The notes: generated by a model from the sequence alone, not told the origin. A stretch of DNA of 34,872 nt from Bacteroidota bacterium (GCA_017860375.1 JAGDMB010000002.1:1-34872), one strand, 5' to 3'; shown: positions 1 through 30,638, numbered from the stretch's first letter. Program-made: numbers and translations.

Positions 1-334
1 TATCAACAAACTGCAATATCCAAGCCTGAGCCGTAAACCCCTGAAACTGATTGACAGAAGGTGAGAAAAGAAGGGTCACTGTTTTGATATACATGCACAA
101 TGGTGGTTATAAACCATGCAGAGACAGATCGTATCGGTTACAGGCATGAAATAAGTACTGAAGTATTGGCCGGATGGAATTTTCGCATTGCGTTAAAGTG
201 TATGATTGCAGGTGTCTGTTTCATTTAACTTTACTAACAATTTCGTATCTTCGTATGGCAACGCATAAAACTTTGTTGAAATGAAAACGAGAACAATAGT
301 ATGAAGATCTGGTATTAACTTAAATTATAAGGCT

Positions 335-1583: not shown

Positions 1584-1595
1584 ACCTTTTATGAA

Positions 1596-2735: not shown

Positions 2736-3373
2736 CGAATTCCGGTTTCATAAGCAGATTTTGTTCAATCCGTAACAACACGGTAGTTGTCAACAATAAA
2801 ACGGAATTTTTCCGGCCGGATGAAAAACCGGAGAAATTTCTGACCGGTGTTTACCAGCACTTCGCCATTCAATATCCGAAGTTCTATAAGATGGATATCC
2901 TGAGCAAGCTTGGCTTTTTATCTGTCGAGCTGCTCCTCAGGGATACCGGATTGCTTGAAAAATATGCGGGTCATAAAACGGGTATCATTCTCATGAATGC
3001 TTCCTCTTCTCTGGATACCGACAGGCGTCACCAGGAAAGTATACTGGACCGGGCAAACTATTTTCCCAGTCCGGCCGTTTTTGTTTATACCTTGCCCAAT
3101 ATCATGATCGGGGAGATAAGCATCAGGCATAAGATCACCGGGGAAGGCACTTTCTTTGTCCGGGAAAGATTCGATGCCTCTTTTCTGGTAAGCTATATCC
3201 GCCAGTTGTTTGATACGGGCATACTGCAGTGTTGTATTACAGGATGGACTGAGACGAACGGGGACGACTATGAATCGGTCATGTATTTTGTAGAGAAAAC
3301 CGACAGACCTATGGACGGAATTGCTAATTTTGACGCCGCTACGATACAAAAATTATACGATAAAGTGAAATAA
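2732..3373 (+). CDS. Short KS-like protein lacking the active-site Cys (chain-length-factor/ApeC-like partner)
   Basis: 213 aa. NASSSLDTD sits where a KS carries ...AC.S... . The ATGA overlap with the upstream KS stop (2732-2735) suggests translational coupling. Confidence 0.65.
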   Translation: MTNSGFISRFCSIRNNTVVVNNKTEFFRPDEKPEKFLTGVYQHFAIQYPKFYKMDILSKLGFLSVELLLRDTGLLEKYAGHKTGIILMNASSSLDTDRRHQESILDRANYFPSPAVFVYTLPNIMIGEISIRHKITGEGTFFVRERFDASFLVSYIRQLFDTGILQCCITGWTETNGDDYESVMYFVEKTDRPMDGIANFDAATIQKLYDKVK

Positions 3374-3376
3374 GGT

Positions 3377-3634
3377 ATGGAACAACTTATCCAGAAGCTG
3401 AAGGAAGAAATCATTGATGCCCTGAATTTATCGGAAATGAATCCGGAACAGATCGATGATAAAGCACCTCTTTTTATTGATGGTTTGGGCCTTGATTCGA
3501 TTGATGCACTGGAACTGACAGTTCTGCTGGAAAAAAAATACGGACTGAGAATCAGTACCGCTGAAGAGGGCAAAAAGGTGTTGTATTCGGTAAGGTCGAT
3601 GGCAGAGTTTATTACAGCCAACGGGAAAGCATGA
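3377..3634 (+). CDS. Acyl carrier protein
   Basis: 85 aa, acidic, with a DGLGLDSIDALEL phosphopantetheine-attachment Ser motif. Confidence 0.9.
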   Translation: MEQLIQKLKEEIIDALNLSEMNPEQIDDKAPLFIDGLGLDSIDALELTVLLEKKYGLRISTAEEGKKVLYSVRSMAEFITANGKA

Positions 3635-3705
3635 ATTATTTGTTCCATGCATCTTTTGCTCTTCGAAAAACAAGAAATTAACCATTACTCTTAAAATCTC
3701 AGGTT

Positions 3706-4911
3706 GTGTCAGACCGCGTTTTTGTTACCGGTATTGGTGTCATTTCCGCCCTCGGCTTTGACATCGACGAAACCGCTTCCGCATTGCAGAAATCAAAAAG
3801 CGGCATTGGCCGCATTTCGCTTTTTGACACTGTGTACAAAGAGGAAATACCGGTAGCGGAAGTTAAGGCTTCCAACATTGAACTTGCTGAAAGGGCACAG
3901 GTAAAACAGGATGGATTGTTTTCCCGGACTTCCCTGCTGGGGCTTATCGCTGCACGGCAGGCATTGTCACAGGCTCAGGTCAGGGATTTTGCCGGAACCA
4001 GGACCGGTTTGATTTCCGCCACCACCACAGGGGGCATGGACCGGAGTGAAAGATTTTTTAAGGAATATCTGAAAAACAACAGAAGAGGCCGTTTACGGGA
4101 TATTGTCACCCATGATTGCGGCAACAGTACAGAAATTATTGCAAAGCAAACCGGAATAAGGGATTACGTAACCACCATCAGTACCGCCTGTTCGTCATCG
4201 GCCAACGCTATATTGTTGGGTGCACGCCTGGTTCAGAACGGAATGCTGGACCGGGTTCTGGCAGGCGGGGTGGATGCCCTGACCCTCTTTACTCTGAATG
4301 GCTTCAACAGCCTGATGATTCTTGACCGAAACGGTTGCAAACCTTTTGATGAGGAAAGAAACGGACTTACTCTGGGCGAAGGAGCGGGATTTCTGATGAT
4401 CGAATCGGAAAGCTTGGCTAAAAAACAAGGCAAGACCATTCTGGGTGAAGTAAAAGGCTATGGGAATGCCTGTGATGCACATCATCAGACCGCCTCTTCA
4501 CCCGAGGGAAACGGAGCCTACCTTTCCATGGAAAAGGCTCTTATAACAGCCGGCCTGAAGCCTGCCATGATCGACTATATTAACGCCCATGGTACCGGTA
4601 CCAAAAACAATGATTTATCGGAAGGGATCGCAATAAAAAGACTCTTTCAGGATTCTGTTCCCGCTTTCAGTTCAACAAAGGCCTATACAGGGCATACGCT
4701 GGGTGCGGCCGGGGCCATTGAAGCGGTTTTCTGTATTATGGCCCTGCAGCATCAATGGCTCTATCCTAACCTTAATTTCAGACAGACCATGAAAGAACTT
4801 GGATTTTCACCCGTTGCAAGCTTTCAACATCACGTTCCGGTTCGATATATCATGTCCAATTCATTCGGATTCGGCGGTAATAATACGAGTATAATTTTTT
4901 CGGGATGCTGA
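3706..4911 (+). CDS. Beta-ketoacyl-ACP synthase II-like (KS)
   Basis: ISTACSSSANAI (Cys), NAHGTGTKNND (His), YTGHTLGAAG (His), SNSFGFGGNN. GTG start. Confidence 0.9.
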   Translation: MSDRVFVTGIGVISALGFDIDETASALQKSKSGIGRISLFDTVYKEEIPVAEVKASNIELAERAQVKQDGLFSRTSLLGLIAARQALSQAQVRDFAGTRTGLISATTTGGMDRSERFFKEYLKNNRRGRLRDIVTHDCGNSTEIIAKQTGIRDYVTTISTACSSSANAILLGARLVQNGMLDRVLAGGVDALTLFTLNGFNSLMILDRNGCKPFDEERNGLTLGEGAGFLMIESESLAKKQGKTILGEVKGYGNACDAHHQTASSPEGNGAYLSMEKALITAGLKPAMIDYINAHGTGTKNNDLSEGIAIKRLFQDSVPAFSSTKAYTGHTLGAAGAIEAVFCIMALQHQWLYPNLNFRQTMKELGFSPVASFQHHVPVRYIMSNSFGFGGNNTSIIFSGC

Positions 4912-4912
4912 T

Positions 4913-5980
4913 ATGGAAGCCTTTATTGATGGAATAAGCGCGATCTCACCGCAAAAGACCCTCGACGGATCGGTGTTTCTGCAGGAACTACAGGAATACA
5001 AAGGCGTTCATGCACTGAAATGCATAGAACCCCCTTATAGTGATTTTCTTGATCCAATGGCCTCACGGCGCATGAGCCGAATTGTCAAAATGGGAGCTTG
5101 TGCCGCCATGAAATGCCTGAAGGAGGCCTCCCTTGAAAACCCCGGTGCCATCATCACCGGAACCGGTCTGGGGTGCATTGAAGACACAGAGAAATTTCTC
5201 ACTTCCCTGTATACCAATGAAGAAAAACTTTTAAATCCCACTCCTTTTATTCAGTCGACGCACAATACCGTTGCTGCTGCCATTGCTCTGATGCTTAAAT
5301 GCAACAGTTACAACAACACTTACGTTCACCGGGGTTTCTCTTTTGAAAGCGCCCTGCTTGACGGCCTTATGCTGTTGCATGAGGGAACTGCGGAACGGGT
5401 CCTGGTCGGCGGTCTGGATGAACTGACAAACCACTCCTTCGCCATCACAAACCGCCTGGGATTCTGGAAGAGGCAACCCATAGACAGCCTCAGGCTGCTG
5501 GAGTATAAAAGTAAAGGGAGCCTGGCCGGAGAAGGAGTTGCATTCTTTGCACTAAACCGTGAGAAAAGTGAAAAAACCATTGCCATGATCCGTTCCATCG
5601 ATACTATTTTTAATCCCGGAACTCCTGCTGAAACAGAACGCCGGTTATCCGTTTTTGTTGAAAAAGCCGCAGGAGGGATGGGTAAGCTGGATCTTATCGT
5701 TTTGGGAATGAACGGAGATCCGGAAATGGATGAAGTCTACCGTCATCTGGTGAATACTCTGTTCGGTTTGGTACCCTGCGCTTATTTTAAGCATTTATGC
5801 GGTGAATACGATACCGCATCGTCCTTTGCCCTGTACCTGGCTGCTGCGATACTTAAAGAACAAAAGGTTCCGGAAGCAATCCGGCTCGACAAGAGATCCA
5901 TAGGACAGATAAAAAATATACTGGTATACAATCATGTGAGAAACAGTAACCACTCGATGTTTGTAGTTTCGGCATGCTGA
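4913..5980 (+). CDS. KS-like chain-length-factor (no catalytic Cys)
   Basis: 355 aa with thiolase-fold-like length and layout. The position equivalent to the KS Cys reads VHRGFSFES. It starts 1 nt after the stop of the preceding KS. Confidence 0.75.
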   Translation: MEAFIDGISAISPQKTLDGSVFLQELQEYKGVHALKCIEPPYSDFLDPMASRRMSRIVKMGACAAMKCLKEASLENPGAIITGTGLGCIEDTEKFLTSLYTNEEKLLNPTPFIQSTHNTVAAAIALMLKCNSYNNTYVHRGFSFESALLDGLMLLHEGTAERVLVGGLDELTNHSFAITNRLGFWKRQPIDSLRLLEYKSKGSLAGEGVAFFALNREKSEKTIAMIRSIDTIFNPGTPAETERRLSVFVEKAAGGMGKLDLIVLGMNGDPEMDEVYRHLVNTLFGLVPCAYFKHLCGEYDTASSFALYLAAAILKEQKVPEAIRLDKRSIGQIKNILVYNHVRNSNHSMFVVSAC

Positions 5981-6747
5981 AATATAAAAAAATACTGCTT
6001 GCTTTCGGCCTTTTGCTGATGGTAGTCTTGCTTATGGATTATTTTTATCCGGTAAGCATCGGGTGGTATATTGGCATTCTTATTGCAGCGGTCGGAATGC
6101 TGGCCTATGGTTCCATTTCCATCCGGTCAGGTTTTTACGGTCGGGTCATTTGCTCCTTTGATTCCGGTGATAAAGTCATGGCCCTGACTTTTGACGACGG
6201 TCCTGATGAGCTGGTTACCCCGCAGGTGCTTGACCTTTTGAAAAGAGAGCATATAAAGGCTGCCTTTTTTTGCGTCGGATCCCGGATATTAACGTATCCT
6301 GCATTGATTGAACGGATGGACAGGGAAGGACATATCATTGGGAATCACAGTTTTTCGCATCATTTCTTTTTTGATCTCTTTTCCGTTAAAAGGATGGAGG
6401 AAGAACTGATGAAAACGGAAAAACTGGTTGAACGCATTATCCATAAAAAGATTCAGCTTTTCAGACCTCCCTATGGTGTTACCAATCCGTTGCTGGCAAG
6501 AGCATTGCAAAAGATGAATTATTCCGTCATTGGCTGGACGGTGAAATCAAAAGATACGGTGATCAGGGATGAACAAAAGCTGTATGACAGACTAACCGGC
6601 AAAACCGGAAATGGAGGCATCATTCTTTTCCATGATACCCGTCCTCACCTGGTTCCTGTTCTCGACAAATTCATAAAATATGCACGTGAAAATGAGTACC
6701 GCTTTGAACGCCTCGACAAAATCCTGCAAATTGCAGCGTATGAATAG
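5974..6747 (+). CDS. Membrane-anchored NodB-family polysaccharide/carbohydrate de-N-acetylase
   Basis: N-terminal TM helices followed by all three core NodB motifs: TFDDGPDE, GNHSFSHH, FRPPYG. Overlaps the upstream gene by 7 nt. Confidence 0.85.
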   Translation: MLKYKKILLAFGLLLMVVLLMDYFYPVSIGWYIGILIAAVGMLAYGSISIRSGFYGRVICSFDSGDKVMALTFDDGPDELVTPQVLDLLKREHIKAAFFCVGSRILTYPALIERMDREGHIIGNHSFSHHFFFDLFSVKRMEEELMKTEKLVERIIHKKIQLFRPPYGVTNPLLARALQKMNYSVIGWTVKSKDTVIRDEQKLYDRLTGKTGNGGIILFHDTRPHLVPVLDKFIKYARENEYRFERLDKILQIAAYE

Positions 6748-7384
6748 AACGGTTGCTTTCTTTGCCTGTTTCTGCCTGATCTTCGTCATGCCGCACGCCG
6801 GCGCTCAGGAAACCTTTAAACCCATGAGCGACATCGCGACATTCAAAGAGAAACTGGCTGCTATGTCGGGGGCGACTCAAACGATTGTATGCAATTTCGT
6901 TCAGGAGAAAAATCTGAGTGTATTGTCGGAAAAGGTCATTTCAAAGGGGCAGTTCTATTTTAAAAAAGAAAACAATATCCGCTGGGAATATACGGATCCA
7001 TACAAATACCTGATCATCATCAGCAACAATCAGCTGTTTACCCGTGACGACAAAAACCAGAATCAATACGACATTCAATCCAGTGCGATGTTTCAGGAAA
7101 TGAACAAGTTTATCAGCGGTTGTATACAGGGGGATATCCTGAAAAATGACAGGGATTATGCCATAACGTATTTTGAAAGCAGCAGGTCATATTATGTTAC
7201 ACTGATTCCCCGTAATGAAAAGATGAAACAAATGTTGAATGAGGTACAGATCTTTTTTGACAGGAAGGATCTGACGGTTTCCAGTCTCAAAATGATTGAA
7301 TCGGGGGAAGATTATACGCGCATAAATTTCATTGACAAGAAACTGAATACAGAAATACCGGTTGAAAAATTTAATTTTAAGTAG
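6740..7384 (+). CDS. LolA-like outer-membrane lipoprotein carrier protein (ApeL-like)
   Basis: Preferred start is ATG 6740 (MNRTVAFFACFCLIFVMPHAGAQE, a signal peptide), overlapping the deacetylase stop. The track ORF starts at 6680. Size, beta-rich composition and position in the cluster fit the LolA-like genes of aryl-polyene loci. Confidence 0.65.
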   Translation: MNRTVAFFACFCLIFVMPHAGAQETFKPMSDIATFKEKLAAMSGATQTIVCNFVQEKNLSVLSEKVISKGQFYFKKENNIRWEYTDPYKYLIIISNNQLFTRDDKNQNQYDIQSSAMFQEMNKFISGCIQGDILKNDRDYAITYFESSRSYYVTLIPRNEKMKQMLNEVQIFFDRKDLTVSSLKMIESGEDYTRINFIDKKLNTEIPVEKFNFK

Positions 7385-8021
7385 CCTTTTATTATTGTTG
7401 CTGGGCGGGTGTTCCGGTTCCCGTTTTTACCGATTACAAAGGATGCCCGAAACAGCCATCAGCAAAAACCATATCCTCCCCTGGTTCCAGGGGGATACCA
7501 TTCGTTTCTTGTTCCGCGCCCATGTGGAGTTCCACAGGCATCATCTTGGCGGATTAATGCTCATAAAGCCCATGAATGGAGAGAGTTACAGGGTGCTTTT
7601 CATGACTGAGGTAGGAATAAAGATTTTTGATATGGAATTCTTCCGCAACGGCGATTTTAAGTTGCATTACTTGCTGGATGCAATGAAGCGCAAATCCCTT
7701 CTCGAGAGCTTAAAAAACGATATGGGTCTGATACTTTACCCTGTTGGCGGGGACACACAAATTGAAATGAGGAAAGACAGGGAAACCGGAAACGTTGTGA
7801 TCCAATCAATGAATAGGAACGGGGTGAACTATTTTTTCATCAATGAACAGAACAGGGTGAATAAAATCAAGCAGAGAGACGGATGTATACAAAGGATGAA
7901 TATGACCCTGTACAGCGCAGATTCAAGGGAAATCGATTCCATCCGAATTTGCCATTCTCCGGTGAAAATGAACATTTATTTGTCAAAACTTAATGAAAAC
8001 AGATCCGAAATTTCTGAATGA
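7362..8021 (+). CDS. Lipoprotein of unknown function (possibly DUF3261/ApeN-like)
   Basis: TTG start. Lipobox LLLLGGC|SG. 219 aa with no catalytic motif recognised. Overlaps both neighbours (23 nt and 29 nt). Confidence 0.55.
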   Translation: MKNLILSSLLLLLLGGCSGSRFYRLQRMPETAISKNHILPWFQGDTIRFLFRAHVEFHRHHLGGLMLIKPMNGESYRVLFMTEVGIKIFDMEFFRNGDFKLHYLLDAMKRKSLLESLKNDMGLILYPVGGDTQIEMRKDRETGNVVIQSMNRNGVNYFFINEQNRVNKIKQRDGCIQRMNMTLYSADSREIDSIRICHSPVKMNIYLSKLNENRSEISE

Positions 8022-8382
8022 TTTGTATGTCATAAAGGACATCAGGGAAGAATTGGCCAGCAATAAATTTACCGTTCTGATCGAATTGAATTCCAATCAT
8101 CCGATTTTCCGGGGTCATTTCCCGGGAAATCCGGTTTTACCGGGGGTATGTACCGTTCAGATCATAAAAGAGCTATTGGCAAATCTGTTGAAGAGAAACC
8201 TGAACCTCAAAAAGGCCGGCACCATAAAATACCTTTCCTTTATAAATCCTGAAATAAACCGGTTGGTAAGTTTTGACCTGCAGGTAAAGGAAGCTGAAGA
8301 AGGGCAGCTGATCTGCAATGTCTCCGTATTTCATGAGACGACAGTATTTTGCAGCTTCAGGGGGGAGTGGGCAGAAGAATAA
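7993..8382 (+). CDS. FabZ/FabA-like hotdog 3-hydroxyacyl-ACP dehydratase
   Basis: FRGHFPGNPVLPGV is the classical FabZ catalytic-His motif. 129 aa. Confidence 0.8.
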   Translation: MKTDPKFLNDLYVIKDIREELASNKFTVLIELNSNHPIFRGHFPGNPVLPGVCTVQIIKELLANLLKRNLNLKKAGTIKYLSFINPEINRLVSFDLQVKEAEEGQLICNVSVFHETTVFCSFRGEWAEE

Positions 8383-8405: not shown

Positions 8406-8825
8406 TTATATTTCCAGCAAAATCCTCATCTCGCATTCCGCAATAACGGAAGCGTTCCAGAAGATCTTTCCCGTTACAATCGTATAGCCAAGCAGTTCGT
8501 TTTCAACAACGATCTCGGAATGGATTTCAGTGTTGACAGCTGGCAGGGAATGAATGATCAGGTTCTTGATGGCTCCGATATACCCCCTGGATACCGCTTT
8601 CTTTGCAGACAATTGTTGATAACCCGTGTAAGCAGCTGCCGTCTGTGCGATGCATTCCATGAGACCCGATTCCTGCAGACAACCGTTATGGCACAAGACG
8701 TTGGAATCCAGAATAAAAAGGCGACCGCTGGCTGATTTCTCAGAACAACCGGTTAACGTGTCGACCATGACAAATGGCGGACGCTGGGGGATCAGATCGA
8801 GAATCGAATATTCTTCCAGTTTCAT
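8406..8825 (-). CDS. Hotdog-fold dehydratase (ApeI/ApeP-type partner)
   Basis: LIPQRPPFVMVD (FabZ N-terminal motif) and CHNGCLQESGLMECIAQTAA (His ... Glu-x-x-A-Q). 139 aa. Confidence 0.7.
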   Translation of the reverse strand: MKLEEYSILDLIPQRPPFVMVDTLTGCSEKSASGRLFILDSNVLCHNGCLQESGLMECIAQTAAAYTGYQQLSAKKAVSRGYIGAIKNLIIHSLPAVNTEIHSEIVVENELLGYTIVTGKIFWNASVIAECEMRILLEI

Positions 8826-8865: not shown

Positions 8866-10224
8866 TCATCTTACCAGGAATTCCCAGAGCGGGCCTTTTT
8901 TATTTCTTTTTCTCATCCTGAGCATGATCTCCGACAGGTCTTCGTCGGGAAATATCCATGGTTTTCCTGACTGCTTTGCCTTCGGTTTAAGGGTTGATGT
9001 GTCGATGTCTTTTGACACATAATAAACCGGTTCAAGAAGGGGATCTTCCTTTTGAACAATGCCTTCGCGGAGTGCAATGCTGTGAAGCCGGGTGCCTGGA
9101 TATATACGCATTCCGATGAAAGGAAAAAAGGCGGTGTGTTGTATCCTTTTTGAATTTTCAAAGGTTTCGTCAAGGGTCTGTTCGGTTTCGCCATATCCTC
9201 CAAGGATAAGAAAGTGGGCAAAATCGATCGCAAGCGTATTGCAGATCTCCGAAATGGCGAGAATATCCGCTACGGTAAAAGGTTTTCCATAGTTTCTGAG
9301 CATGGTGTCCGATAGCGATTCAGTGCCAAATTCAATATGCCGGAGACCGGCTTTTTTTAGCTTCTCAAGGAGGTTAAAGTCAATATTCGTGAAATTAAAA
9401 TATCCCCCCCATTGAATCTTTAATCTGGCGGCAATTAAGCGGTCCGCAAGGTCATGGTTAAAAGTATTGTGGATATTAAAGACAGAGTCCGTAAAAAAAA
9501 CATAATCAATTCCTTTATTGAAATACAGGTCCGACAGTGTTTTTACAATTTGTTCCGGATCGAGGGTACGCACGGTGTGACCTTCTATCAGGGGGTATGT
9601 GCAATAGATACATTTGTAAGGACAGCCACGTTTGGTTTGTATGTTCAGCATCCCGCTGTTTTGCCAGTAATAATCAACAAGCGCATTATCAAACGTCAAG
9701 ACCGGAGATTTGAAATGGTTTGTTCTGTTGTTTACCGTCACTTTCTCATTATGCCGGTAAAGCAAACCATCAATGCCTTTATAATCCTGCCCGCTTTCCA
9801 AGGCTTCGATTAACTGATGCAGGCTGATCTCTCCTTCACCGTAAATGCCAAAATCGGGATTCAGGGTTTCGTATAACTGCTTTGGATAAATGGAAAAACC
9901 GGCACCCCCGATAATAATTTTAGACCGGCTGTATTTCCGCGTGTGGACCATGATCTGATGATAATGCGCAATAAAGCTTTCCTGCCTGTATATATTGACA
10001 TCATCAATGTTCCGAAGGGATATCCCTACATAATCAGGCTGGACATCACAGAGCAGTGCTGCATATTCCTCAAAGGACCCTGTCATAAAGTCGAAGAGGC
10101 GGATCTCCAAATCCGGCATTTGTTCAGCCAGGTATGCTTTCAGATAAGAAATTCCAAGCGGATAAACGGGGTATGGCACGGAATACCTGTTTGCTGAAAC
10201 CAGAATCAGTTTTTTACGGCTCAT
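8866..10224 (-). CDS. B12-binding-domain radical SAM enzyme (class B rSAM)
   Basis: The N-terminal ~130 aa form a Rossmann-like B12-binding-type domain (KLILVSAN..., KIIIGGAG). CX3CX2C at Cys201/205/208 (RGCPYKCIYCTYP, nt 9601-9627 on the complement). The start overlaps the upstream acyltransferase gene by 11 nt. Confidence 0.85.
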   Translation of the reverse strand: MSRKKLILVSANRYSVPYPVYPLGISYLKAYLAEQMPDLEIRLFDFMTGSFEEYAALLCDVQPDYVGISLRNIDDVNIYRQESFIAHYHQIMVHTRKYSRSKIIIGGAGFSIYPKQLYETLNPDFGIYGEGEISLHQLIEALESGQDYKGIDGLLYRHNEKVTVNNRTNHFKSPVLTFDNALVDYYWQNSGMLNIQTKRGCPYKCIYCTYPLIEGHTVRTLDPEQIVKTLSDLYFNKGIDYVFFTDSVFNIHNTFNHDLADRLIAARLKIQWGGYFNFTNIDFNLLEKLKKAGLRHIEFGTESLSDTMLRNYGKPFTVADILAISEICNTLAIDFAHFLILGGYGETEQTLDETFENSKRIQHTAFFPFIGMRIYPGTRLHSIALREGIVQKEDPLLEPVYYVSKDIDTSTLKPKAKQSGKPWIFPDEDLSEIMLRMRKRNKKGPLWEFLVR

Positions 10225-11113
10225 TTGCTTCCCAGAAATTGTAATAATTAAACCACTGAGAGGGATACTTCCGCAGGGTACGTTCCAAAACGTAAATATA
10301 ATCTTTTATTATGGTTTGAATGGTCTGGTCTCTTTTCTGCTGTATGCCTTGCTGTTGATAAAGACGGGGAGGTGTGGCAAAGAAATGATAATGTGAAGCC
10401 GAATCTTTCATGGCAAAAACAAACGATACCGGCACATGGAATTTCATTGCCAGGTAAAAAGGACCTGTAGGAAAATTTGCTTTTTCGCCAAGGAATTCAA
10501 CAGACAGGGTTTTGCTTCCCTTTACAAATCTGTCGCCGTGAATACAGACCAGTTGTTTTTCACGGAAGGCTTTGTTGATCTCATAAATATGGGAATTGTC
10601 CTCTTTGATGGCAATGACATTGAATTTCCGGCGGGTAACCGAATCAAGATAGTACTTGATTTTTTCATGTTCTGCATCGAACATTATGATATTGACCTCG
10701 GTTTCCAGCCTTTCGAGCATATTGCCGGCCATTTCAAAATTGCCTATATGGGCACTTATCAGTAATCCTCCCGTTCTGTCTGCCACTATTTTTCTGAGGT
10801 GTTCTTCGCCTTCGTAGGTAAAGGAGAATTTTACCGGAAATCCGGCCATGACAGCAACTTTATCCAGCAATACCTGACCGAACACATAATAGTTCTTATA
10901 CACCATCTGCAGGGAATGGAAAAAGCCATATGCAAATCTTTTCCGGTAGAATGGATAGATCGCTTTAAATGCTTTTGGCAGGAACAGGAAAAAATAGAGG
11001 GCAACAAAACGCAAAAGAAAGTATGCAAAGGGCAGACCGGTGTATTTAAGCAGGGCAAAAAAAATCTTATAACCTGCTAAACCGCCGCGTGTTTTACCTT
11101 TCCAGGAAGCCAC
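10214..11113 (-). CDS. LpxL/HtrB-family (lipid A late-type / lysophospholipid) acyltransferase
   Basis: N-terminal TM anchor. SAHIGNFE (H-x4-E, compare LpxL HxxxxD/E). ~300 aa. GTG start 6 nt after the ACP stop. Confidence 0.7.
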   Translation of the reverse strand: MASWKGKTRGGLAGYKIFFALLKYTGLPFAYFLLRFVALYFFLFLPKAFKAIYPFYRKRFAYGFFHSLQMVYKNYYVFGQVLLDKVAVMAGFPVKFSFTYEGEEHLRKIVADRTGGLLISAHIGNFEMAGNMLERLETEVNIIMFDAEHEKIKYYLDSVTRRKFNVIAIKEDNSHIYEINKAFREKQLVCIHGDRFVKGSKTLSVEFLGEKANFPTGPFYLAMKFHVPVSFVFAMKDSASHYHFFATPPRLYQQQGIQQKRDQTIQTIIKDYIYVLERTLRKYPSQWFNYYNFWEANEP

Positions 11114-11119
11114 ATTGAA

Positions 11120-11368
11120 TTATTTCTTATGATAAAAGGTGTCGATATAATCGTAAAGATTTTGGAGGGTATGAATGGCAGTCATTTCTTCACCCTTCAG
11201 GGTCAATCCAAACTCTTTCTGGACAATTACTGCAATATCCACAAAATCGAGACTTTCAAGGCCAAGATCATTTTTCAGATGCGCACCGGGAGATATCTTT
11301 GATCCCTCAATCTCAAATTCCTCCACTAAAAAATCATTTATCTTATTCTCAATATCTTCCCTCTTCAT
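11120..11368 (-). CDS. Acyl carrier protein
   Basis: 82 aa, with a NDLGLESLDFVDI Ser attachment motif. Confidence 0.9.
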   Translation of the reverse strand: MKREDIENKINDFLVEEFEIEGSKISPGAHLKNDLGLESLDFVDIAVIVQKEFGLTLKGEEMTAIHTLQNLYDYIDTFYHKK

Positions 11369-11389: not shown

Positions 11390-12610
11390 TTAATGATACT
11401 TTTTAATAATCAAACATGAATTGGTTCCGCCGAATCCAAAGGAATTCGATAAGAAGGTATTGATTTCTCTGGGAGTTGTTTCCCTGACAATGTTCAGTTT
11501 GGAGGTAAATTCATCCGTTTCCTCTAAATTGATGTTGGGTGCAATAAAGGAATGTTGCATCATCAGCATTGAGTACACGATCTCACTGGCACCGGCCATC
11601 CACATTTCATGACCCGTCATCGATTTGGTGGAGGAAACAAGGGGCTTTTGCCGGCCAAAGATATGATCAATGGCTTTCGCTTCATTTTGATCTCCTATGG
11701 GAGTTGAGGTGGCATGGGCATTTATATAGTCAATCTGAGAAGGGTCGATGGAAGCATTTTTTAGTGCCATGGTAATAGCACGGATCGGACCATCCACATC
11801 AGGAACGGAAATGTGAAGCCCGTCAGAGGAAAAGCCATAGCCGGTTACTTCGGCAAGAATGGTAGCTCCTCTTTTCATCGCATGTTCGAGGTCCTCGAGT
11901 ATTAAAGTAGCAGCTCCGCCACTGGGGACCAATCCATCCCTCTTTTTGTCAAAAGGCCTGGATGCTTTTTCGGGCTCTGATTCGAGTTTTGAAAAAGCGC
12001 CCAGTGCATCGAAACTGCCTACACAAAAATGATTGGTTTCCTGTGATCCTCCGCAAATAACAATATTCTGGTACCCGTGCCGGATCATCATATATCCCAG
12101 GCCAATGGCATGGGATCCACTGGCACACGCTCCGCTGACGGTGAAATTAATGCCTTTAAGGTGAAAAATTACGGATAAATTCATGGTCACCGATGAGTTC
12201 ATCGACTGAAAAACGGATCCTGAGCCAACCAATGAGGTGTCTTTTTTTTCACGGATGATGTCGGCACATTCAATTACCGCGGGTGTGGAACTGTCGTTGC
12301 CAAAAAGAATGCCCACTTCATTCTGATCAAGGTATTCTTTTGTGATGCCGGCCGATTTAAGCGCCTCAACGGTTGACATATAGGCGTATTCAGCGTGTTC
12401 GGGCATACAAACGCGGGACCGCCGGTCGAGGATACCCTTCAGGACAGGTCTCTCCACTTTGCCGGTTAATCCCGACTGGTAACCCATGGCCTTTCTCTCC
12501 GGATCGAGAACAACACCTGATCTTCCATTTATAAGAGAGTCTTTCACTTCACTGAGGTTCTTTCCAATGGAAGAATAAATGCCTGTACCCGTAATAACTA
12601 CCCTTTTCAT
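11390..12610 (-). CDS. Beta-ketoacyl-ACP synthase I/II-like (KS; ApeR/FabF-like)
   Basis: SGACASGSHAIG (Cys), NAHATSTPIGD (His), MTGHEMWMAG (His), SNSFGFGGTN. Confidence 0.92.
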   Translation of the reverse strand: MKRVVITGTGIYSSIGKNLSEVKDSLINGRSGVVLDPERKAMGYQSGLTGKVERPVLKGILDRRSRVCMPEHAEYAYMSTVEALKSAGITKEYLDQNEVGILFGNDSSTPAVIECADIIREKKDTSLVGSGSVFQSMNSSVTMNLSVIFHLKGINFTVSGACASGSHAIGLGYMMIRHGYQNIVICGGSQETNHFCVGSFDALGAFSKLESEPEKASRPFDKKRDGLVPSGGAATLILEDLEHAMKRGATILAEVTGYGFSSDGLHISVPDVDGPIRAITMALKNASIDPSQIDYINAHATSTPIGDQNEAKAIDHIFGRQKPLVSSTKSMTGHEMWMAGASEIVYSMLMMQHSFIAPNINLEETDEFTSKLNIVRETTPREINTFLSNSFGFGGTNSCLIIKKYH

Positions 12611-12634: not shown

Positions 12635-13369
12635 TTATGTATAAAGTCCACCATTGACTGAGATTACTTCCCCGGTTATATAGGATGCTTTTTCCGATGC
12701 CAGAAAACAGACTACTTCAGCCACTTCTTCCGGCAATCCGAAACGGTTAAGCGGAATCAGGTTTTTTAATTCGGCCTCGTTCAGGTCCTTTGTCATATCC
12801 GTCCTTATAAAGCCGGGCGCCACGGCATTCACCGTTACATTCTTTTTGCCGATCTCCTGGGCCAGTGCTTTGGTTGCTCCGATCAAGGCGGCTTTTGCCG
12901 CGGAATAATTTACCTGTCCCGGCAGACCTTTCAGGCCCGATAGCGATACAATATTCACGATGCGACCGTATTTATTGACCAGCATGTTTTTTATCAGGAA
13001 CCGTGTGACATAAAAAAAACTATTCAGATTGGTATGGATGACATCATTCCAGTGACTGTCCTCCATCCACATGAGAAGAATATCCTTACGGATTCCTGCA
13101 TTGTTAATCAAAACCTCAACAGTTGCCTCCCTGTTTTCATCCTGCCATTTGCCCAAAGCGTCGCTCACCTGAACGGGATCGGAAACGTCAAATGGCAAAA
13201 GTTCCCCGCTGCCTCCGGCTTCTTTTATCAGGGAAAGGGTTTGCATGGCTTCTGCCTCGTTTGACTTATAATTCACAAGAATAGGATATCCCAGCGAAAC
13301 CATTTTAACGGATATGGCCCTGCCTATGCCTCTTGAACCACCGGTAACTAATGCATATTTCATTATCAA
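12635..13369 (-). CDS. 3-oxoacyl-ACP reductase (SDR, FabG-like ketoreductase)
   Basis: TGGSRGIG cofactor motif, NNAG, and the Y-x3-K catalytic pair (NYSAAKAA). The start may be 13363 (MKYALV) rather than 13369. Confidence 0.92.
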   Translation of the reverse strand: MIMKYALVTGGSRGIGRAISVKMVSLGYPILVNYKSNEAEAMQTLSLIKEAGGSGELLPFDVSDPVQVSDALGKWQDENREATVEVLINNAGIRKDILLMWMEDSHWNDVIHTNLNSFFYVTRFLIKNMLVNKYGRIVNIVSLSGLKGLPGQVNYSAAKAALIGATKALAQEIGKKNVTVNAVAPGFIRTDMTKDLNEAELKNLIPLNRFGLPEEVAEVVCFLASEKASYITGEVISVNGGLYT

Positions 13370-13377
13370 TCAAAACA

Positions 13378-14925
13378 TTAATTATTCACTTCGTGAACAA
13401 AATGGGTGCAAAGGTAATCATTAATCTTCCGAATTTCAATATATTTCACTGTATCCTCCTCAAACCTGGGAACCAGGTTCCGGAATTGCATATAGGCATT
13501 TCTTGTTCGTGAGGACAAACGGTTTTCAACAGTGAGATAGTCAATGGCCTGGATAAGGCTAAGCATTTCAACAGAAAGTACCTGGTACGTATTTTCAATG
13601 ACTTTTTTTGCCAGCAGGGCGGAATTGGTTCCCATGCTGACCACATCCTGATTATCGTTGTTGTTGGGAATGCTGTGAATGTAATTGGGGTAAGACAAGG
13701 ACTGGTTTTCAGCCACGGTAGACACAGCCGTAAACTGGGCTCCCTGCATACCAAAGTTAACACCCAGTTTTCCAAGGTTTACAAAAGGCGGAAGCTTGCC
13801 ATTCAGTTTGTCATTCATCATGTAGTTGATCTGCCTTTCCATGAGTATGGAAAGCTTTGTCATGGCAATTTTCATTTTATCCATTTCAAAGGAGATATAA
13901 TCACCATGAAAGTTACCGCCGTGAAATATGTTCTGATTGGCGTCATCAATCATGGGATTGTCACAGGATGAATTGGCTTCATTCAGCAACACCTTTTCGG
14001 ATTGCTCAAGGGTTTCAAGGATGGGGCCCAAAATTTGGGGAACACAGCGTATGGAATAATATTCCTGCACCTTGTCCGCTATGATATATTTGTCGTCAAG
14101 TTTATGATTATAAAAATGATCTTCCCGCTTGCGGATTAATTTGCTGTCGGAAAGAATTTTGCGGATTGCCGCGGCGATGGTATTTTGCCCCTCATGCAGC
14201 TTGACCTGGTTGAGTTCTTTTGAAAAACTGTCGTCGAAAGACCGGACAATCTCATTGATTGTGGCACAAACCAGCAAAGACCAGGAGAGGATATTTTTTG
14301 CATGGATCAGGTTAACGATACCGGTACCGGTCATAAAACAGGTTCCATTGATCAGGGACAATCCTTCACGCAGGTGAACCGAAATGGGCTTAAGATTGTA
14401 TTGCCGGAAGGCTTTGCCGGTATCAACAAGGGCGCCGTCACAATATACTTCCCCTTCCCCTATTAAAGCAAGGGCAACATGAGCAAGCTGCACCAGATCT
14501 CCGCTGGCGCCGACTCCGCCATGTTCAGGAACCATGGGAGTAATCCCATGATTGATCATTGCGGCAATTAATTCCACTACCTCGGGATGAATTCCGGAAT
14601 GTCCCTGTAAAAAATTATTCAACAGCACAATCAGAACAGAACGAACGTACAACGGATCAACAGGCTGACCGCTTCCGGACGCATGGCTTCTTATGGCATT
14701 GTACTGTAGACGGATCCGGTCGGCTTCGTCAATTCTGTATTGAGCCATGGGACCGAGCCCTGTGTTAATCCCATAAATTATCTTATCCTGGTGAAAAGAT
14801 TGAAGAAAATTGAAATTCTTGATTATTCTGCTTTTAACCGAATCAGGGATCTCTATTTTGGAATCTCCGTATAAAATCTTTTGAAAATCATCCGCAGTTA
14901 TCCTGCGCTCACCTATATTCAGCAT
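13378..14925 (-). CDS. MIO-dependent aromatic amino acid ammonia-lyase (HAL/PAL/TAL family; FlxA-like)
   Basis: GGVGASGDLVQLAH (Ala-Ser-Gly MIO triad), YGINTGLG, NQDVVSMG. 515 aa. Confidence 0.9.
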   Translation of the reverse strand: MLNIGERRITADDFQKILYGDSKIEIPDSVKSRIIKNFNFLQSFHQDKIIYGINTGLGPMAQYRIDEADRIRLQYNAIRSHASGSGQPVDPLYVRSVLIVLLNNFLQGHSGIHPEVVELIAAMINHGITPMVPEHGGVGASGDLVQLAHVALALIGEGEVYCDGALVDTGKAFRQYNLKPISVHLREGLSLINGTCFMTGTGIVNLIHAKNILSWSLLVCATINEIVRSFDDSFSKELNQVKLHEGQNTIAAAIRKILSDSKLIRKREDHFYNHKLDDKYIIADKVQEYYSIRCVPQILGPILETLEQSEKVLLNEANSSCDNPMIDDANQNIFHGGNFHGDYISFEMDKMKIAMTKLSILMERQINYMMNDKLNGKLPPFVNLGKLGVNFGMQGAQFTAVSTVAENQSLSYPNYIHSIPNNNDNQDVVSMGTNSALLAKKVIENTYQVLSVEMLSLIQAIDYLTVENRLSSRTRNAYMQFRNLVPRFEEDTVKYIEIRKINDYLCTHFVHEVNN

Positions 14926-15114
14926 TTAGACAATATTTGTGTTAATGAGGTGTTGAAAATATATTCCCGTATTAAAGGTCAATAAATGCTGCAAAATAAT
15001 AAAAAAACAGCTTATTATGCTAATTGTTTGCAGAATTACCCTTCTTTTTTGGGTTTAAATTAATTTGTTAACTTGCACCCTCCATCATTACTGATAAACC
15101 GGGGACAAGCGGGA

Positions 15115-16266
15115 ATGAAAACCTGTGTAATAATTCCAACCTACAACAACGGAACAACGCTTGAAGGAGTAATATCAGAGGTCCTGAAAATATCAATGGA
15201 TATAATTGTGGTAAATGACGGTTCGACGGACAATACAGCCTTGATTTTACAGAAATTTAACTCCCTGAAAACCCTGTCCTATGCGGTCAACAAAGGCAAG
15301 GGATATGCCATCCGGAAAGGATTTGAGATCGCAATAGCAGAAGGATATACCTATGCCATTACAATCGATTCGGATGGACAGCATTATGCCGGTGATATCC
15401 CTCTTTTTATTCAAAAAGTACAGGAGGAGCCGCATTCGTTGATCGTGGGTGCACGAAACCTTGTCCGTACAACCATTTCCGAATCCAGCAGTTTTGCCAA
15501 CCGGTTTTCCAACTTCTGGTATCGCTTGATTACCGGGATATCGCTGCCGGATACCCAGTCGGGTTTCCGGTTATATCCGCTTGAATTGATAAAGGAAATG
15601 CGTTTTTATACGCGCAAATACGAATTTGAGCTTGAAGTACTTGTCAGGGCGGCGTGGAATGATATAAAAATCAGCAGTGTGCCCATTCGGGTTTATTATC
15701 CGCCAAAAAAGGAAAGGGTCAGTCATTTCAGACCTTTTAAGGATTTTACCCGGATAAGCTTGCTGAATACCCTGTTCGTTATCATTTCATTGCTGTATAT
15801 TAAACCCTTTTCTTTTTTAAAATACCTGACCAGGGAAAATATCCGGAATTTTGTCACTAAACATATCCTGCTGACCGATGAAACCAATTTTAATATTGCA
15901 ATGGCAGTGGCGTTTGGCGTATTTATGGGCATCATTCCGATATGGGGATTGCAGCTGATAACGGCCATTGCCCTGGCGCATCTGTTTAAACTTAGTAAAT
16001 TCATCGTGATTGTTGCAGCCAACATCAGCATTCCGCCCATGATACCGTTTATTTTGTACGCCAGTTATATAACGGGGGGAATTCTTATGGGAACCGGAAC
16101 CAATATGCGGTTTAGCAGGGACCTGACCGTCCCGTCCTTCGAAAACAATGTATTGCAATACATCCTGGGAAGTATTGTGTTTGCTGTTATTATGGGAATC
16201 GCGACGGGAATAGCCTCCTATATTTTCGTGTCAAACCTGCGAAAAAAGCATACGGTGAATAATTAA
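15115..16266 (+). CDS. Family 2 glycosyltransferase fused to a DUF2062-type polytopic membrane domain
   Basis: CVIIPTYNNG, VNDGSTD and DSDGQH (GT2 DxD region), then ~130 aa of TM helices. Preferred start is ATG 15115 (MKTCVII); the track ORF starts at TTG 15073. Confidence 0.85.
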   Translation: MKTCVIIPTYNNGTTLEGVISEVLKISMDIIVVNDGSTDNTALILQKFNSLKTLSYAVNKGKGYAIRKGFEIAIAEGYTYAITIDSDGQHYAGDIPLFIQKVQEEPHSLIVGARNLVRTTISESSSFANRFSNFWYRLITGISLPDTQSGFRLYPLELIKEMRFYTRKYEFELEVLVRAAWNDIKISSVPIRVYYPPKKERVSHFRPFKDFTRISLLNTLFVIISLLYIKPFSFLKYLTRENIRNFVTKHILLTDETNFNIAMAVAFGVFMGIIPIWGLQLITAIALAHLFKLSKFIVIVAANISIPPMIPFILYASYITGGILMGTGTNMRFSRDLTVPSFENNVLQYILGSIVFAVIMGIATGIASYIFVSNLRKKHTVNN

Positions 16267-16269
16267 CCT

Positions 16270-19200
16270 ATGGAAGGTCTGTTTCTATTCCTCTATGGCT
16301 TCTTTAAGAATAAGCGAATTTTATTCTTTATCCTCGTTTTGACCGTGGGTCTGATTGCCTTATTTCTGGCCAGCCGGATAAGCTTTGAAGAAGACATTAC
16401 CAAAATGATTTCAGGGGCTGATAACAAGGCGAAAATCACCCAGGCTATAGAAAAATCCGGATTCCTTGAAAAAATCATTATCACCGTATCCATGGCGGAT
16501 ACGGCACTACCACCTGATCCGGAAAGGCTGATACATCAGGCTGCAAAGCTTGCCGATACGCTGCAAAGCAAAACGTTTCGACCGTACGTCAGAGGGATCA
16601 CATTCAGGATATCCCCGACCGCAATAGAGGATGTATTGGATATTGTGTACAGAAATCTGCCTGTTTTTCTTGAAGAAAAGGATTATCTCAGCCTTGACAC
16701 CCTGTTGACTCCTGCAAGAATTGAGGAGAATCTCAGAAACAACTACAATACCCTTTTATCCCCTGCCAGTTTCGCCATGAAAAAGATGATCGTGCGTGAT
16801 CCGGCAGGACTAAGCAGTGTAGCCCTGAAAAAACTCAGCGCTTTTCAGCAGGATGAAAACTACCGGATCATCAGCGACTGCATTTTTTCCAAAGACAAAA
16901 AACATCTCCTGCTCTTCGTGACAACGGTTTTCCCTGCCAGTGCCACTTCGCAAAACGCGGTCTTTGTTAAAATGATGGATCGGCTTATTTCGTCAATCGT
17001 GGAGCAGAACAACAACGAACTGAACATTGAATATTTTGGCTCAGCTGTGGTTGCAGTGGGGAATGCCGAGCGTTTAAAAAAGGACATCCGGTTGACCCTG
17101 TCCATTACGCTGGTCCTGCTTCTTCTGATCATCAGTTTTTCCATCAAGAAAAAGAGATTGTTTCCTTTTATTTTCCTGCCGGCCATTTTCGGTGGCCTCG
17201 TTGCACTTGCCGTCATCTATCTGATCCAGGCAAAAATATCCATTATTTCTCTCAGCATCGGTACGGTTATCCTTGCCATTACGGTTGATTATTCGCTCCA
17301 TATTACGATGCATTTTAAGCACAGGCATGCCATCGTGGAAACCATTAAAGATGTATCTTTTCCTATTATTGTATGCGGATTTGCCACTGCTTTTGAATTT
17401 CTCAGCCTGGTATTTGTTTCATCAGAATCGTTGCATGAACTGGGTATATTGGCAGCCATAAGCGTCATTACCGCCTCTTTTTTCACGATGGTGGTGATGC
17501 CTCATATTCTTGATCTGACGCGGGGAAAAGAGGACAAAACGGAAGAAAAAAACTACCTGGAGCGTATCCTGGATAAAATTACCCGGTATGATTTCCATAA
17601 AAACAGACTGCTGCTGCTTTTCATGATAATTTTCACCGTCGTTTGCTGGATATTCATTGATAACGTCGGCTTTGAAAGCGATATGATGAAAATGAATTAC
17701 ATATCCGACAAATTATCACAGACAGAGGAAAACCTGAATAGGATCAACAATTACAAACTCAATTCGGTATATGTCATTGCCCACGGTGACAACATTCAGG
17801 AAGCCTTATCGCACAATGACAGGCTCGTGGAAAAGGGGAATGAATTCCTTCATGAAAAAAGAATACAGAACCTGAGTTCCCCGGGAACTTTGTTGCTTTC
17901 CGATTCCCTTCAGCAGAAGCGTATCGATCGATGGAATGCTTTTTGGACAGAAGGAAAAAAGAAAGATTTCCTGAACTGCTTTGATCAGACGGCCAGGCAG
18001 ACCGGGTTTAACTCAAGCTCCTTCGGTGGTTTCCATGATCTGGTCAACCGATCCTATTCCGTCCTGGATACCCAGGATTTCAACCGGTTGCAGACGCATT
18101 TCTTCAATGAGAACATACGCATAGGGCCCGGACTTTCCACGGTGGTATCCGTGATTAAAGTGGATGATGCGAACAAGGAACCTTTGATTGATCAGATAAA
18201 TACACTTGATGGACTCGTCGTGATGGACAGGAAATCCATTCTTTCCGGGATGGTAGAGACGTTGGGGAAAGATTTCAATTTTATTGCCAATGTAAGTTTA
18301 TCGCTTATCCTGGTCATCCTTATCCTTGCATTTGGCCGTTTTGAACTGGGTTTTATCACCTTTATTCCGATATTTCTCAGCTGGGTCTGGACTTTGGGAA
18401 TTATGGGGATGGCCGGAATTAAATTCAACATTTTCAATATTATAATTTCTTCCTTTATTACGGGCCTTGGCATTGATTATAGCATCTATATTATGCAGGG
18501 GCTGGTACAGGGGTATAAAAGCGACAACAAGAGCCTGTTGTCTTACAAAACCTGCATACTGATATCGGTTATGATCTCCATATCGGGTACCGGTGTTTTT
18601 ATCCTGGCAAAACATCCTGCCCTGAATTCCATAGCCGTTATTTCCATTATCGGTTTGTCATCTGTGGTGCTGATATCCTATACCTTTGAACCGGTTTTAT
18701 TTTACTGGCTGGTAGTAAAAAAGGGCAGGAATCGTCTGTTACCCATTACCTTATCCGATATCCTTTTCAACCTGGTAGCCGCACTCTTTTTTATTCTGGA
18801 GTTTGTTTTCCTTATGATGCTCCGCATCCTCTTATTCCCGTTACCGCTCAGGAAGGAAAGGAAAAAACGGATCCTGCATGTGGGTTTCAGCTGGAGCCTG
18901 AGAGTATTGGCCTACGTTCCGTTTCATATCCGGAAGAAAACGATCAATGAAAGCCATGAGGATTTTCAAAAACCTGCCATGATAATATGCAATCATAAAT
19001 CCCATCTTGAAGTTCCGTTTATCATGAAAATGAGCCCGAACATTATTGTTCTTACTGCCAGGTGGGTCTGGAACAATCCGTTCTTTGCACCCGTCATCCG
19101 GTATCTTGATTATTATCCTTTGAATGACGGGTTTGAAACCATTTACGAAAAGCTACAGAAAAAAGTGAAGGAAGGGTATTCCATTATGGTATTCCCGGAG

Positions 19201-29875: not shown

Positions 29876-29911
29876 TTTCTGTTTTTTAATGACGTATCAG
29901 TTTGCAGCGAT

Positions 29912-30583: not shown

Positions 30584-30638
30584 TCAAATCGTTTAGTTTG
30601 TTTCTCTCCTACAGGGTATTTTATCATCCCGTTCGGAT

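Follow-up and report, generated by a model that had tools for sequence, protein, structure and literature searches.

The window analysed here is a stretch of 34,872 nucleotides from a Bacteroidota bacterium (GCA_017860375.1, JAGDMB010000002.1:1-34872), and our study focused on one of its genes, 8866..10224 on the minus strand, which starts with ATG and encodes a cobalamin-dependent radical S-adenosylmethionine (SAM) protein of 452 residues, hereafter rSAM. Its domains and motifs give good support to the view that it is a working radical SAM enzyme of class B and belongs to family TIGR04072. An accessory role for it, in tailoring the lipid of a flexirubin-type aryl-polyene pathway that runs on a type II system resembling polyketide synthases (PKS) and fatty acid synthases (FAS), is equally well supported. 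The host is an uncultured Bacteroidales bacterium, probably an anaerobe. What the enzyme does can be stated only tentatively: the reading that we favour, to which we give somewhat less than an even chance, is that of a cobalamin-dependent C-methyltransferase decorating a carrier-protein-bound aryl-polyene intermediate. Among clusters of the flexirubin/aryl-polyene type the locus represents a variant not described before, and the published models of these pathways, whose clusters lack radical SAM genes, do not cover such a step, as an earlier note on this DNA had already remarked.

The protein combines an N-terminal Rossmann-type cobalamin-binding domain (9814..10182, minus strand; Pfam PF02310 B12-binding, residues 15-137; E 5e-11, 42.8 bits against a cut-off of 32.1) with a radical SAM core (9157..9636, minus strand; Pfam PF04055, residues 197-356; E 6.7e-20, 72.4 bits against 29.5). 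The core carries the CX3CX2C motif as CPYKCIYC (9601..9624, minus strand), in which Cys201, Cys205 and Cys208 are the predicted ligands of a [4Fe-4S] cluster; the only remaining cysteines of the protein are C59 and C328. The earlier note had described an open reading frame (ORF) of this length with a B12-binding-type N-domain and this motif, and had assigned it to the cobalamin-type class B enzymes; Pfam and the motifs agree with it on each point.

Among the NCBIfam models, TIGR04072 was matched at 409.6 bits, above its curated equivalog cut-off of 360, with residues 5-451 aligned on positions 1-442 of the 443 in the model. NCBI names this family 'lipid biosynthesis B12-binding/radical SAM protein' (rSAM_ladder_B12) and has given the same name to P0074, a homologue at 67% identity. 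By this score the gene falls into a family that is known, though uncharacterised, and the kinship with the B12-binding radical SAM enzyme of proposed ladderane loci, which the earlier note had suggested along with a profile search against radical SAM models, is upheld. Membership gives no mechanism, because function is established for no member. All other families scored far under their cut-offs: BzaD (TIGR04385) with 180 bits against 450 (E 8.5e-53, residues 20-408 on 18-418 of 438), the TsrM family (TIGR04428) with 104 bits against 500, PhpK with 103, slr0320 with 102, HpnJ with 96, the MgmA type with 79, BchE with 74, AprD4 (NF033070) with 69 and HpnR (TIGR04367) with 54 bits against 650, while HpnP gave no NCBIfam match at E 1e-3 or better. 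The analogy with the hopanoid methylases HpnP and HpnR, by which the earlier note had illustrated the class, was dropped on account of the HpnR score: these enzymes are distant, and the nearest characterised relatives are TsrM and BzaD. Hopanoid genes were not found in the window, nor bza genes nearby. The three best non-self families, BzaD, TsrM and PhpK, are all named or known for methyl transfer. BzaD itself is said to have been described by Hazra et al. in 2015 as an aromatic C-methylase. Support for that role is indirect (PMC6461909). Homologues of equal length are abundant, at 92% identity and lower, and a representative library of 1.84 billion proteins holds 725 clusters (50% identity) that match at E 1e-30 or better.

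The position of the gene links it to the pigment pathway. It is an internal member of a minus-strand series that reads flxA, flxB, flxC, flxD, flxE, rSAM, flxF, the order that the earlier note had given as ammonia-lyase, ketoreductase (KR), ketosynthase (KS), acyl carrier protein (ACP), acyltransferase, radical SAM and dehydratase (DH). The series comprises the tyrosine ammonia-lyase FlxA (13378..14925; NCBIfam NF053541, 791 bits against a cut-off of 700), the ketoreductase FlxB (12635..13369; NF053542, 399 bits against 340), the ketosynthase FlxC (11390..12610; Pfam ketoacyl-synt N- and C-terminal domains), the acyl carrier protein FlxD (11120..11368; Pfam PP-binding), the LpxL-like acyltransferase FlxE (10214..11113; Pfam Lip_A_acyltrans, E 4e-17) and the ApeP-like hotdog dehydratase subunit FlxF (8406..8825). 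The stop codon of flxE (10214-10216) lies beyond the rSAM start codon (10222-10224), so that the two genes overlap by 11 nt (ATGAGCCGTAA), and flxF begins 40 nt past the rSAM stop; both spacings are as first noted. The FlxF of the window has no Pfam match, even at E 5, and we call it ApeP-like because it is 29% identical in pairwise alignment (E 2e-19) to a protein at the same position of an Elusimicrobia locus (L087) that Pfam does recognise as an ApeP-like dehydratase.

This arrangement is not peculiar to the window. Scanning one genome per GTDB species with a profile made from a 12-sequence alignment (A2), we found relatives of rSAM in at least 590 genomes, and used the best 80 relatives, which span 49-80% identity, for the counts that follow. 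They come almost entirely from metagenome-assembled genomes of uncultured Bacteroidales, Rikenellaceae, Prolixibacteraceae, Marinilabiliales, Tannerellaceae and Dysgonomonadaceae, a few being labelled Cloacimonadota or SAR324. About 75 of the 80 lie inside flx-type loci, a placement that is non-random relative to pigment loci, as the earlier note had expected. The acyltransferase gene is immediately upstream of rSAM in 57 of the 72 loci with room for it, a FlxF-type dehydratase gene immediately downstream in 67 of 77, and both flank it in 50 of 69; in several loci devoid of the acyltransferase, rSAM comes directly after the ACP gene. Several related loci have the whole flx series on a single strand, and an ammonia-lyase gene was found in 32 of the 50 rSAM loci with enough upstream sequence. 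Two kinds of gene fusion join rSAM to its neighbours: P0133, on 2-3 contigs, is a FlxE homologue fused to rSAM in a cluster with FlxV-like and FlxW-like genes, and P0132, with 3 cluster members from 2 sources, is rSAM fused to a FlxF homologue. Judging from these loci, the B12-dependent radical SAM gene is a recurrent accessory gene, at a fixed position, in the versions of flexirubin/aryl-polyene clusters found in anaerobes of several phyla.

Some of these clusters contain more than the series described above. Additional B12-binding radical SAM genes occur in L017 (621..1895, minus strand) and in 5 other loci, as well as in the distant L082, L084, L085 and L086; the extra copy of L017 is only 20% identical to the rSAM of the window, and P0134 (L085) is a SPASM radical SAM protein fused to a B12-binding one. 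Upstream of flxA, on the opposite strand, 8 loci (L012, L015-L017, L023, L024, L034, L042) have a divergent unit with an ACP, a second BtrH-like protein and a sulfotransferase (Sulfotransfer_3), whose content hints at a sulfated product.

The association between rSAM and these clusters is frequent but not obligatory. When metagenome contigs were searched reciprocally with FlxE, and the 62 loci with room downstream were scored, rSAM was next after FlxE in 28, mostly overlapping or abutting it, flxF was next without rSAM in 31, and something else was in 3. All 14 loci whose FlxE is at least 68.8% identical to the query have rSAM; below this value the two states are interleaved, and some of the rSAM-minus loci share the divergent layout of the window. 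Since 31 of 62 related FlxE loci do without it, rSAM counts, by gene content, as accessory rather than as part of the core pathway. The earlier note had placed the gene in the core operon: the internal position stands, the core status does not. The junction between flxE and flxF has been seen in four states, i.e. empty (Chitinophaga pinensis), with rSAM, with darA-darB (Flavobacterium johnsoniae) and with an unrelated ORF (L155), and its varied content makes it, on present comparisons, a variable slot. In L155, a soil-type flx locus devoid of rSAM, the occupant is an ORF of 537 residues (4908..6521, plus strand); we had expected darAB in this 1.8-kb gap, but the ORF that fills it has no Pfam match. 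The near-identical loci with and without rSAM form natural pairs for a direct comparison of products.

One might ask whether the enzyme belongs to the pigment pathway at all. It could modify lipids in general, for instance by C-methylation of fatty acyl-ACP at mid-chain or at the chain end, and be merely co-located with pigment genes. Five of the 80 close homologues (L040, L067, L071, L074 and L077; 49-54% identity) are orphans among housekeeping genes, which speaks for this alternative; that of L071 adjoins miaA and a poly(A) polymerase-like gene, and that of L067 adjoins moxR/DUF58. Distant members, too, are less tied to aryl polyenes: some have only a KS and chain length factor (CLF) pair (L083), only a KS (L088), or an ACP and a glycosyltransferase (L084), and a Thermodesulfobacteriota cluster (L082) has three tandem B12-binding radical SAM paralogues and no polyene KS/CLF. 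Moreover, the aryl-polyene lipids of Xenorhabdus bear a conjugated C26:5 acyl chain, and the LpxL-like ApeD is proposed to move this ACP-bound conjugated fatty acid onto a lysophospholipid. Against this, about 75 of 80 close homologues keep a fixed position in flx-type loci, the orphans are nested among the embedded copies in a neighbour-joining tree, the start of the gene overlaps the end of the acyltransferase gene, and fusions tie the protein to its cluster neighbours. We therefore regard a general lipid role as improbable.

The distant members also broaden the setting of the family. Those in L082-L089 sit among FAS/PKS-like lipid genes as well. The Elusimicrobia contig L087, whose rSAM is 37% identical to that of the window, has the order KR, KS, ACP, acyltransferase, rSAM and ApeP-like DH, and continues with ACP, KS, CLF, LolA and ApeI-like DH. 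Others form operons of the type acyltransferase, KS~CLF, rSAM, or KS, CLF, rSAM. The contig of P0129, just 1.5 kb long, was too short to be informative on gene context.

Structural comparisons were used to ask what chemistry the active site might support. The AlphaFold2 (AF2) model, built on a 40-sequence alignment, has a mean predicted local distance difference test score (pLDDT) of 94.8 and a predicted template modelling score (pTM) of 0.92. Foldseek against the PDB places TsrM first (template modelling score, TM, 0.78-0.87), followed by MgmA, AprD4, OxsB, TokK and CysS; of these six closest solved structures, four belong to methylases. When the PDB sequences were searched with a profile, TsrM was again best (E 3e-59, both domains covered), TokK and CysS being remote (E 5.5e-6 and 3e-10). 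The model fits onto the cobalamin-bound structures of TsrM, OxsB and TokK, and the motifs that define cobalamin binding in such enzymes (GG, Gly-X-Ser-Leu and GE; PMC9204698) have counterparts here. In the profile alignment to TsrM, the downstream cobalamin-binding motif G67-I68-S69-L70-R71 (10012..10026, minus strand) falls on G65-x-T67-x-R69, R71 being at the position of Arg69, the residue that in TsrM lies beneath the cobalt, blocks the lower ligand and favours methyl-cation transfer (PMC9204698, PMC13331322). R71 is kept in 79 of 80 homologues, and GG (G106, G107), GE (G131, E132) and the three cysteines in 80 of 80; the cysteines and cobalamin motifs are also kept in the 40-sequence alignment (29-52% identity). 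Cobalamin binding by the N-terminal domain is thus a well supported prediction, and the cobalt environment, as modelled, is TsrM-like.

These features also bear on a different possibility, namely that the protein resembles AprD4 in being a radical enzyme that needs no cobalamin, such as a dehydratase or reductase, and that its N-domain is a structural relic. AprD4 (6FD2) is the second-best sequence match in the PDB (E 2e-30) as well as a top fold match, and its NCBIfam model (NF033070) gives a score, if a low one. However, the AprD4 alignment is limited to residues 187-397, within the radical SAM core, where TsrM covers both domains, and the three cobalamin-binding features and the TsrM-type arginine are conserved across the family, which makes a relic domain very hard to credit.

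Resemblance to TsrM ends at the cluster. In TsrM, Glu273 ligates the unique iron in place of SAM, blocks SAM cleavage and makes catalysis non-radical (PMC9204698). The corresponding 'GGE' position of the rSAM, D246-S247-V248 (9481..9489, minus strand), aligns with Asp271-Ser272-Glu273, and residue 248 is Val, Ile or Leu in 80 of 80 homologues, never Glu. Because the position of the blocking glutamate is occupied by Val248, the unique iron would be free for SAM, and the [4Fe-4S] cluster can probably bind and cleave SAM normally. A TsrM-type non-radical mechanism was not adopted, for lack of this cluster-ligating glutamate.

Our favoured reading, a C-methyltransferase, then takes the following form. 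Cys201, Cys205 and Cys208 would hold the [4Fe-4S] cluster, as sequence and model suggest, and cobalamin would be bound base-off/His-off in the N-terminal Rossmann domain, with Arg71 beneath the cobalt as in TsrM. The substrate would most likely be a FlxD-bound intermediate, attached to this ACP through phosphopantetheine; gene order, the fusions and the pantetheinylated substrates held in the crystal structures of TokK and CysS lead us to this proposal. Its turn would come while the KS/KR/DH cycles run or once they are over, but ahead of the transfer of the chain by FlxE. In the most likely reaction, a SAM-derived methyl group would move to form methylcobalamin and from there to a carbon of the ACP-bound intermediate. 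This carbon may be an aromatic one of the tyrosine-derived head group, the one ortho to its phenol, where flexirubin has its methionine-derived methyl, or alternatively a carbon of the polyene or acyl chain.

Four observations lead us to methyl transfer to carbon. TsrM methylates an aromatic sp2 carbon, and the relatives of the rSAM include other methylases, as seen above. The methyl of flexirubin ring A derives from methionine, and the ring methylation and chlorination of flexirubins vary by species (PMC3992019), a variable decoration that fits an accessory enzyme. Finally, no other dedicated C-methylase is apparent: neither the annotated ORFs of the window nor the recurrent extra-gene clusters of the 80 loci include a stand-alone ring methyltransferase of the FlxJ/ApeB type, so that rSAM could be the sole C-methylase. 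The locus does encode the class I methyltransferase domain that the earlier note had placed at the C-terminus of 16270..20133 (plus strand). This ORF is FlxU, a protein of 1287 residues that joins an MMPL/RND exporter, a PlsC-type acyltransferase and a class I SAM methyltransferase (Pfam Methyltransf_25, residues 1117-1210). The earlier note had concluded from it that rSAM probably installs a second modification, which is not a necessary conclusion when no stand-alone enzyme accompanies it.

Several points weigh against methylation, and explain our caution. Class B enzymes include non-methylating ones, such as OxsB, BchE and HpnJ, and the match that ranks second by sequence, AprD4, is a dehydratase working without cobalamin. 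The active site itself gives mixed signals: polar chemistry as in TsrM would fit the arginine beneath the cobalt but not the missing cluster-ligating glutamate. A class I methyltransferase can suffice for the phenol ring, as in the case of ApeB, and why a radical SAM enzyme should be used instead is unexplained. The ring is not a general target either, because the ammonia-lyase is missing from 18 of the 50 rSAM loci with enough upstream sequence and the distant clusters bear no sign of an aryl starter. Lastly, biochemical or genetic evidence is absent for every member of TIGR04072, and the radical SAM enzyme of the ladderane cluster has so far not been obtained by heterologous expression (Dietl et al. 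2023, PMC10139942).

The content of the variable slot in other species raises the question of whether the enzyme forms C-C bonds instead, by a radical mechanism that cyclises or couples ACP-bound polyene or acyl chains. In one version it would be an O2-independent stand-in for the dialkylresorcinol enzymes DarA and DarB, much as BchE compares with AcsF; in the other it would perform ladderane-type chemistry. In F. johnsoniae, darA-darB lies exactly between the flxE and flxF homologues (Fjoh_1101-1104), the position of rSAM in the window. Furthermore, in 30-37 of the 80 loci (including L004-L006, L015-L017, L019, L023 and L024) a block of four genes follows rSAM-flxF directly, between flxF and flxH, encoding a BtrH_N/DUF4872 protein, an ATP-binding cassette (ABC) ATPase, an ABC-2 permease and a protein of 140 residues that has no Pfam match. 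These correspond to DarH, DarI, DarJ and, by position, DarG of the C. pinensis dar cluster, and the block together with rSAM-flxF is collinear with Fjoh_1094-1104 of F. johnsoniae, rSAM replacing darA-darB. Dar-associated genes thus stand beside rSAM-flxF in these loci without DarA or DarB. The absence of a KAS III-like gene from the window, 89 loci and 80 FlxE-derived loci fits the same idea, although this is a soft negative, obtained by tblastn with an approximate E. coli FabH query and no positive control. Anaerobic lineages and habitats are the source of the rSAM loci, and the window has desulfoferrodoxin-like and corrinoid methyltransferase genes; TIGR04072 is the family proposed for ladderane cyclisation, and BchE and HpnJ are detectable relatives.

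Other observations reduce the appeal of C-C bond formation. The slot is also found empty, in C. pinensis and in 31 metagenomic loci, or filled by the unrelated ORF of 537 residues, and because the junction is a variable slot, shared position is weak evidence of shared function. The window lacks the DarG-J genes, and no darA/darB-type genes were found within its 34.9 kb; DarA and DarB could nevertheless be encoded elsewhere in the genomes concerned, as in C. pinensis. Methylases are, besides, the characterised proteins closest to the enzyme. The block without DarA and DarB is a lead toward a Dar-replacing role, weakened by the variable slot and by the lack of DarG-J in the window. Taken together, we consider C-C bond formation unlikely, though the best placed of the alternatives, and its boldest form, in which the TIGR04072 enzyme is no methylase at all and replaces DarA/DarB in anaerobic Bacteroidales as a cobalamin radical C-C bond former on carrier-bound polyenes, a little less likely again. 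Replacement of an O2-dependent core step (the halogenase FlxK or the FAD oxidoreductase FlxV) was also considered and not adopted, because FlxV-like and FlxW-like genes co-occur with rSAM in L086 and L087 and rSAM is dispensable in sister loci.

The remainder of the window completes the cluster. The plus strand has flxH, I, L, M, N, O, P, Q, R and S, followed by flxT and flxU. By Pfam and NCBIfam, the genes within 1092..8382 encode the thioesterase FlxH, the KS FlxI, FlxL, the ACP FlxM, the KS FlxN and the CLF FlxO, and further the deacetylase FlxP, LolA2 (flxQ), LolB2 (flxR) and the ApeI-like dehydratase FlxS; the markers for LolA2 (NF053544, 220 bits against 125) and LolB2 (NF053540, 109 against 60) are both present. 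As listed, the ORFs of the deacetylase (5974..6747) and of LolA2 (6680..7384) overlap by 68 nt, and the real start of LolA2 is probably further downstream, because its model matches only from residue 28. FlxT, a family 2 glycosyltransferase (GT2) with a DUF2062 domain, lies with FlxU within 15073..20133 (Pfam/NCBIfam). The three-part fusion of FlxU recurs in L087, and the version of L089 lacks the acyltransferase part.

The flanks of the window tell more about the starter and the host. The last 20 codons of a FlxY-type CoA ligase (AMP-binding, like phenylacetate/coumarate CoA ligases) lie at 2..61 on the plus strand, with 85% identity over 20 residues to the ligase that adjoins flxH in L002, and the gene for a starter-activating enzyme is probably just beyond the left edge. 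Between this remnant and flxH there is an ORF of 121 residues (335..700, plus strand) for a desulfoferrodoxin, a superoxide reductase-like protein, to which a weak match was also found at the edge of the distant locus L089. At 28988..31883 on the minus strand lies a set of genes for corrinoid-dependent methyl transfer: a homocysteine S-methyltransferase-like protein, an MtgC/MtbC-like corrinoid protein (196 bits) and a weakly matched MtaA/CmuA-like methyltransferase. These flanking genes suggest an anaerobic, corrinoid-using host, and the use of corrinoids by the organism would fit a radical SAM enzyme that depends on B12. The same locus is present on the JGI contigs Ga0316629_10002725, Ga0316616_100007046 and Ga0113563_10009018 (L090, L091 and L092), with FlxE 99-100% and rSAM 99.8-100% identical to those of the window, and this near-identity indicates that the organism recurs in several samples.

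Few biosynthetic gene clusters are as widespread in bacteria as those for aryl polyenes and flexirubins, and the published pathways have no radical SAM step. Our literature search found no paper that pairs flexirubin with radical SAM, and none on TIGR04072 by name. A 2026 review of lipid-modifying radical SAM enzymes mentions ladderanes and the Jaw5 product alone as ketoacyl lipids for which modification of this kind is proposed, and treats the ladderane B12-binding enzyme as uncharacterised. A preprint on flavoaffinin, on aryl polyenes of an anaerobe, was set aside, the system being a type I PKS without a radical SAM enzyme. The antiSMASH 'ladderane' clusters of non-anammox phyla are acknowledged as unexplained; other members of TIGR04072 probably explain these puzzling products of genome mining. 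The anammox hosts of the ladderane-cluster enzyme have no genetics (PMC10139942). If cultured carriers exist, the widespread occurrence of the flexirubin-type loci, their defined context and the plus/minus pairs open a route to the function of a family implicated in ladderane synthesis. Should the enzyme prove a simple C-methylase, the idea of a ladderane cyclase would be weakened; should it be a cyclase or a coupler, it would represent new polyketide chemistry. In the case of C-C bond formation, the chemistry would be of the same kind as that proposed for the anammox homologue and, given cultured carriers, pigmented Bacteroidales would become an experimental proxy for the ladderane question.

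Comparison with characterised radical SAM enzymes shows what is shared and what is not. TsrM (tryptophan 2-C-methyltransferase, PDB 6WTE/6WTF) has the same GxS/TxR arginine and the same GG and GE motifs; the rSAM of the window is only ~20% identical to it, ~120 residues shorter, has Val/Ile/Leu for Glu273 and falls under the TIGR04428 cut-off. BzaD, which acts in the biosynthesis of the B12 lower ligand, is of similar size and is the best-scoring characterised family after TIGR04072, but its genomic context, cobamide biosynthesis, is unrelated to the flx locus. TokK and CysS are relatives in fold (TM ~0.7) and, as class B methylases whose substrate is a thioester-tethered chain, offer a precedent; they are ~200 residues longer, have an extra C-terminal domain and place Trp or Tyr beneath the cobalt instead of Arg.

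Among pigment clusters, flxA-flxY of C. pinensis is the closest reference: the window shares flxA-F, flxH-I and flxL-U with it, in the same order within each arm (Table S4, PMC3992019), whereas the flxA-F arm of the window lies on the opposite strand from the rest. In C. pinensis, flxE adjoins flxF, there is no radical SAM gene, and darA/darB are in a separate cluster; in F. johnsoniae (Fjoh_1074-1110) there is no radical SAM gene either, and darA-darB fills the flxE/flxF gap. The window, in turn, lacks flxG, the class I methyltransferase gene flxJ, the halogenase gene flxK, flxV, flxW, flxX and the darA/B genes of the published clusters. The ape clusters of E. coli and Xenorhabdus share with it the KS/CLF, two ACPs, KR, the ApeI/ApeP dehydratases, the LpxL-like ApeD, GT2, the MMPL exporter and LolA/LolB-like proteins, but have no rSAM, methylate the ring with the class I enzyme ApeB and start from 4-hydroxybenzoate rather than tyrosine-derived coumarate.

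TIGR04072 is named after the B12-binding radical SAM enzyme of the ladderane cluster proposed for anammox bacteria (Kuste2803 type). That cluster differs in its host, which is an anammox planctomycete and not a member of the Bacteroidales, and in its surroundings, the locus described here being flexirubin-type with a tyrosine ammonia-lyase. The kinship between the two enzymes is set by the family model, and it extends to their organisation: both have the same two-domain architecture, and both are encoded with ACP, KS/CLF and hotdog dehydratase genes.

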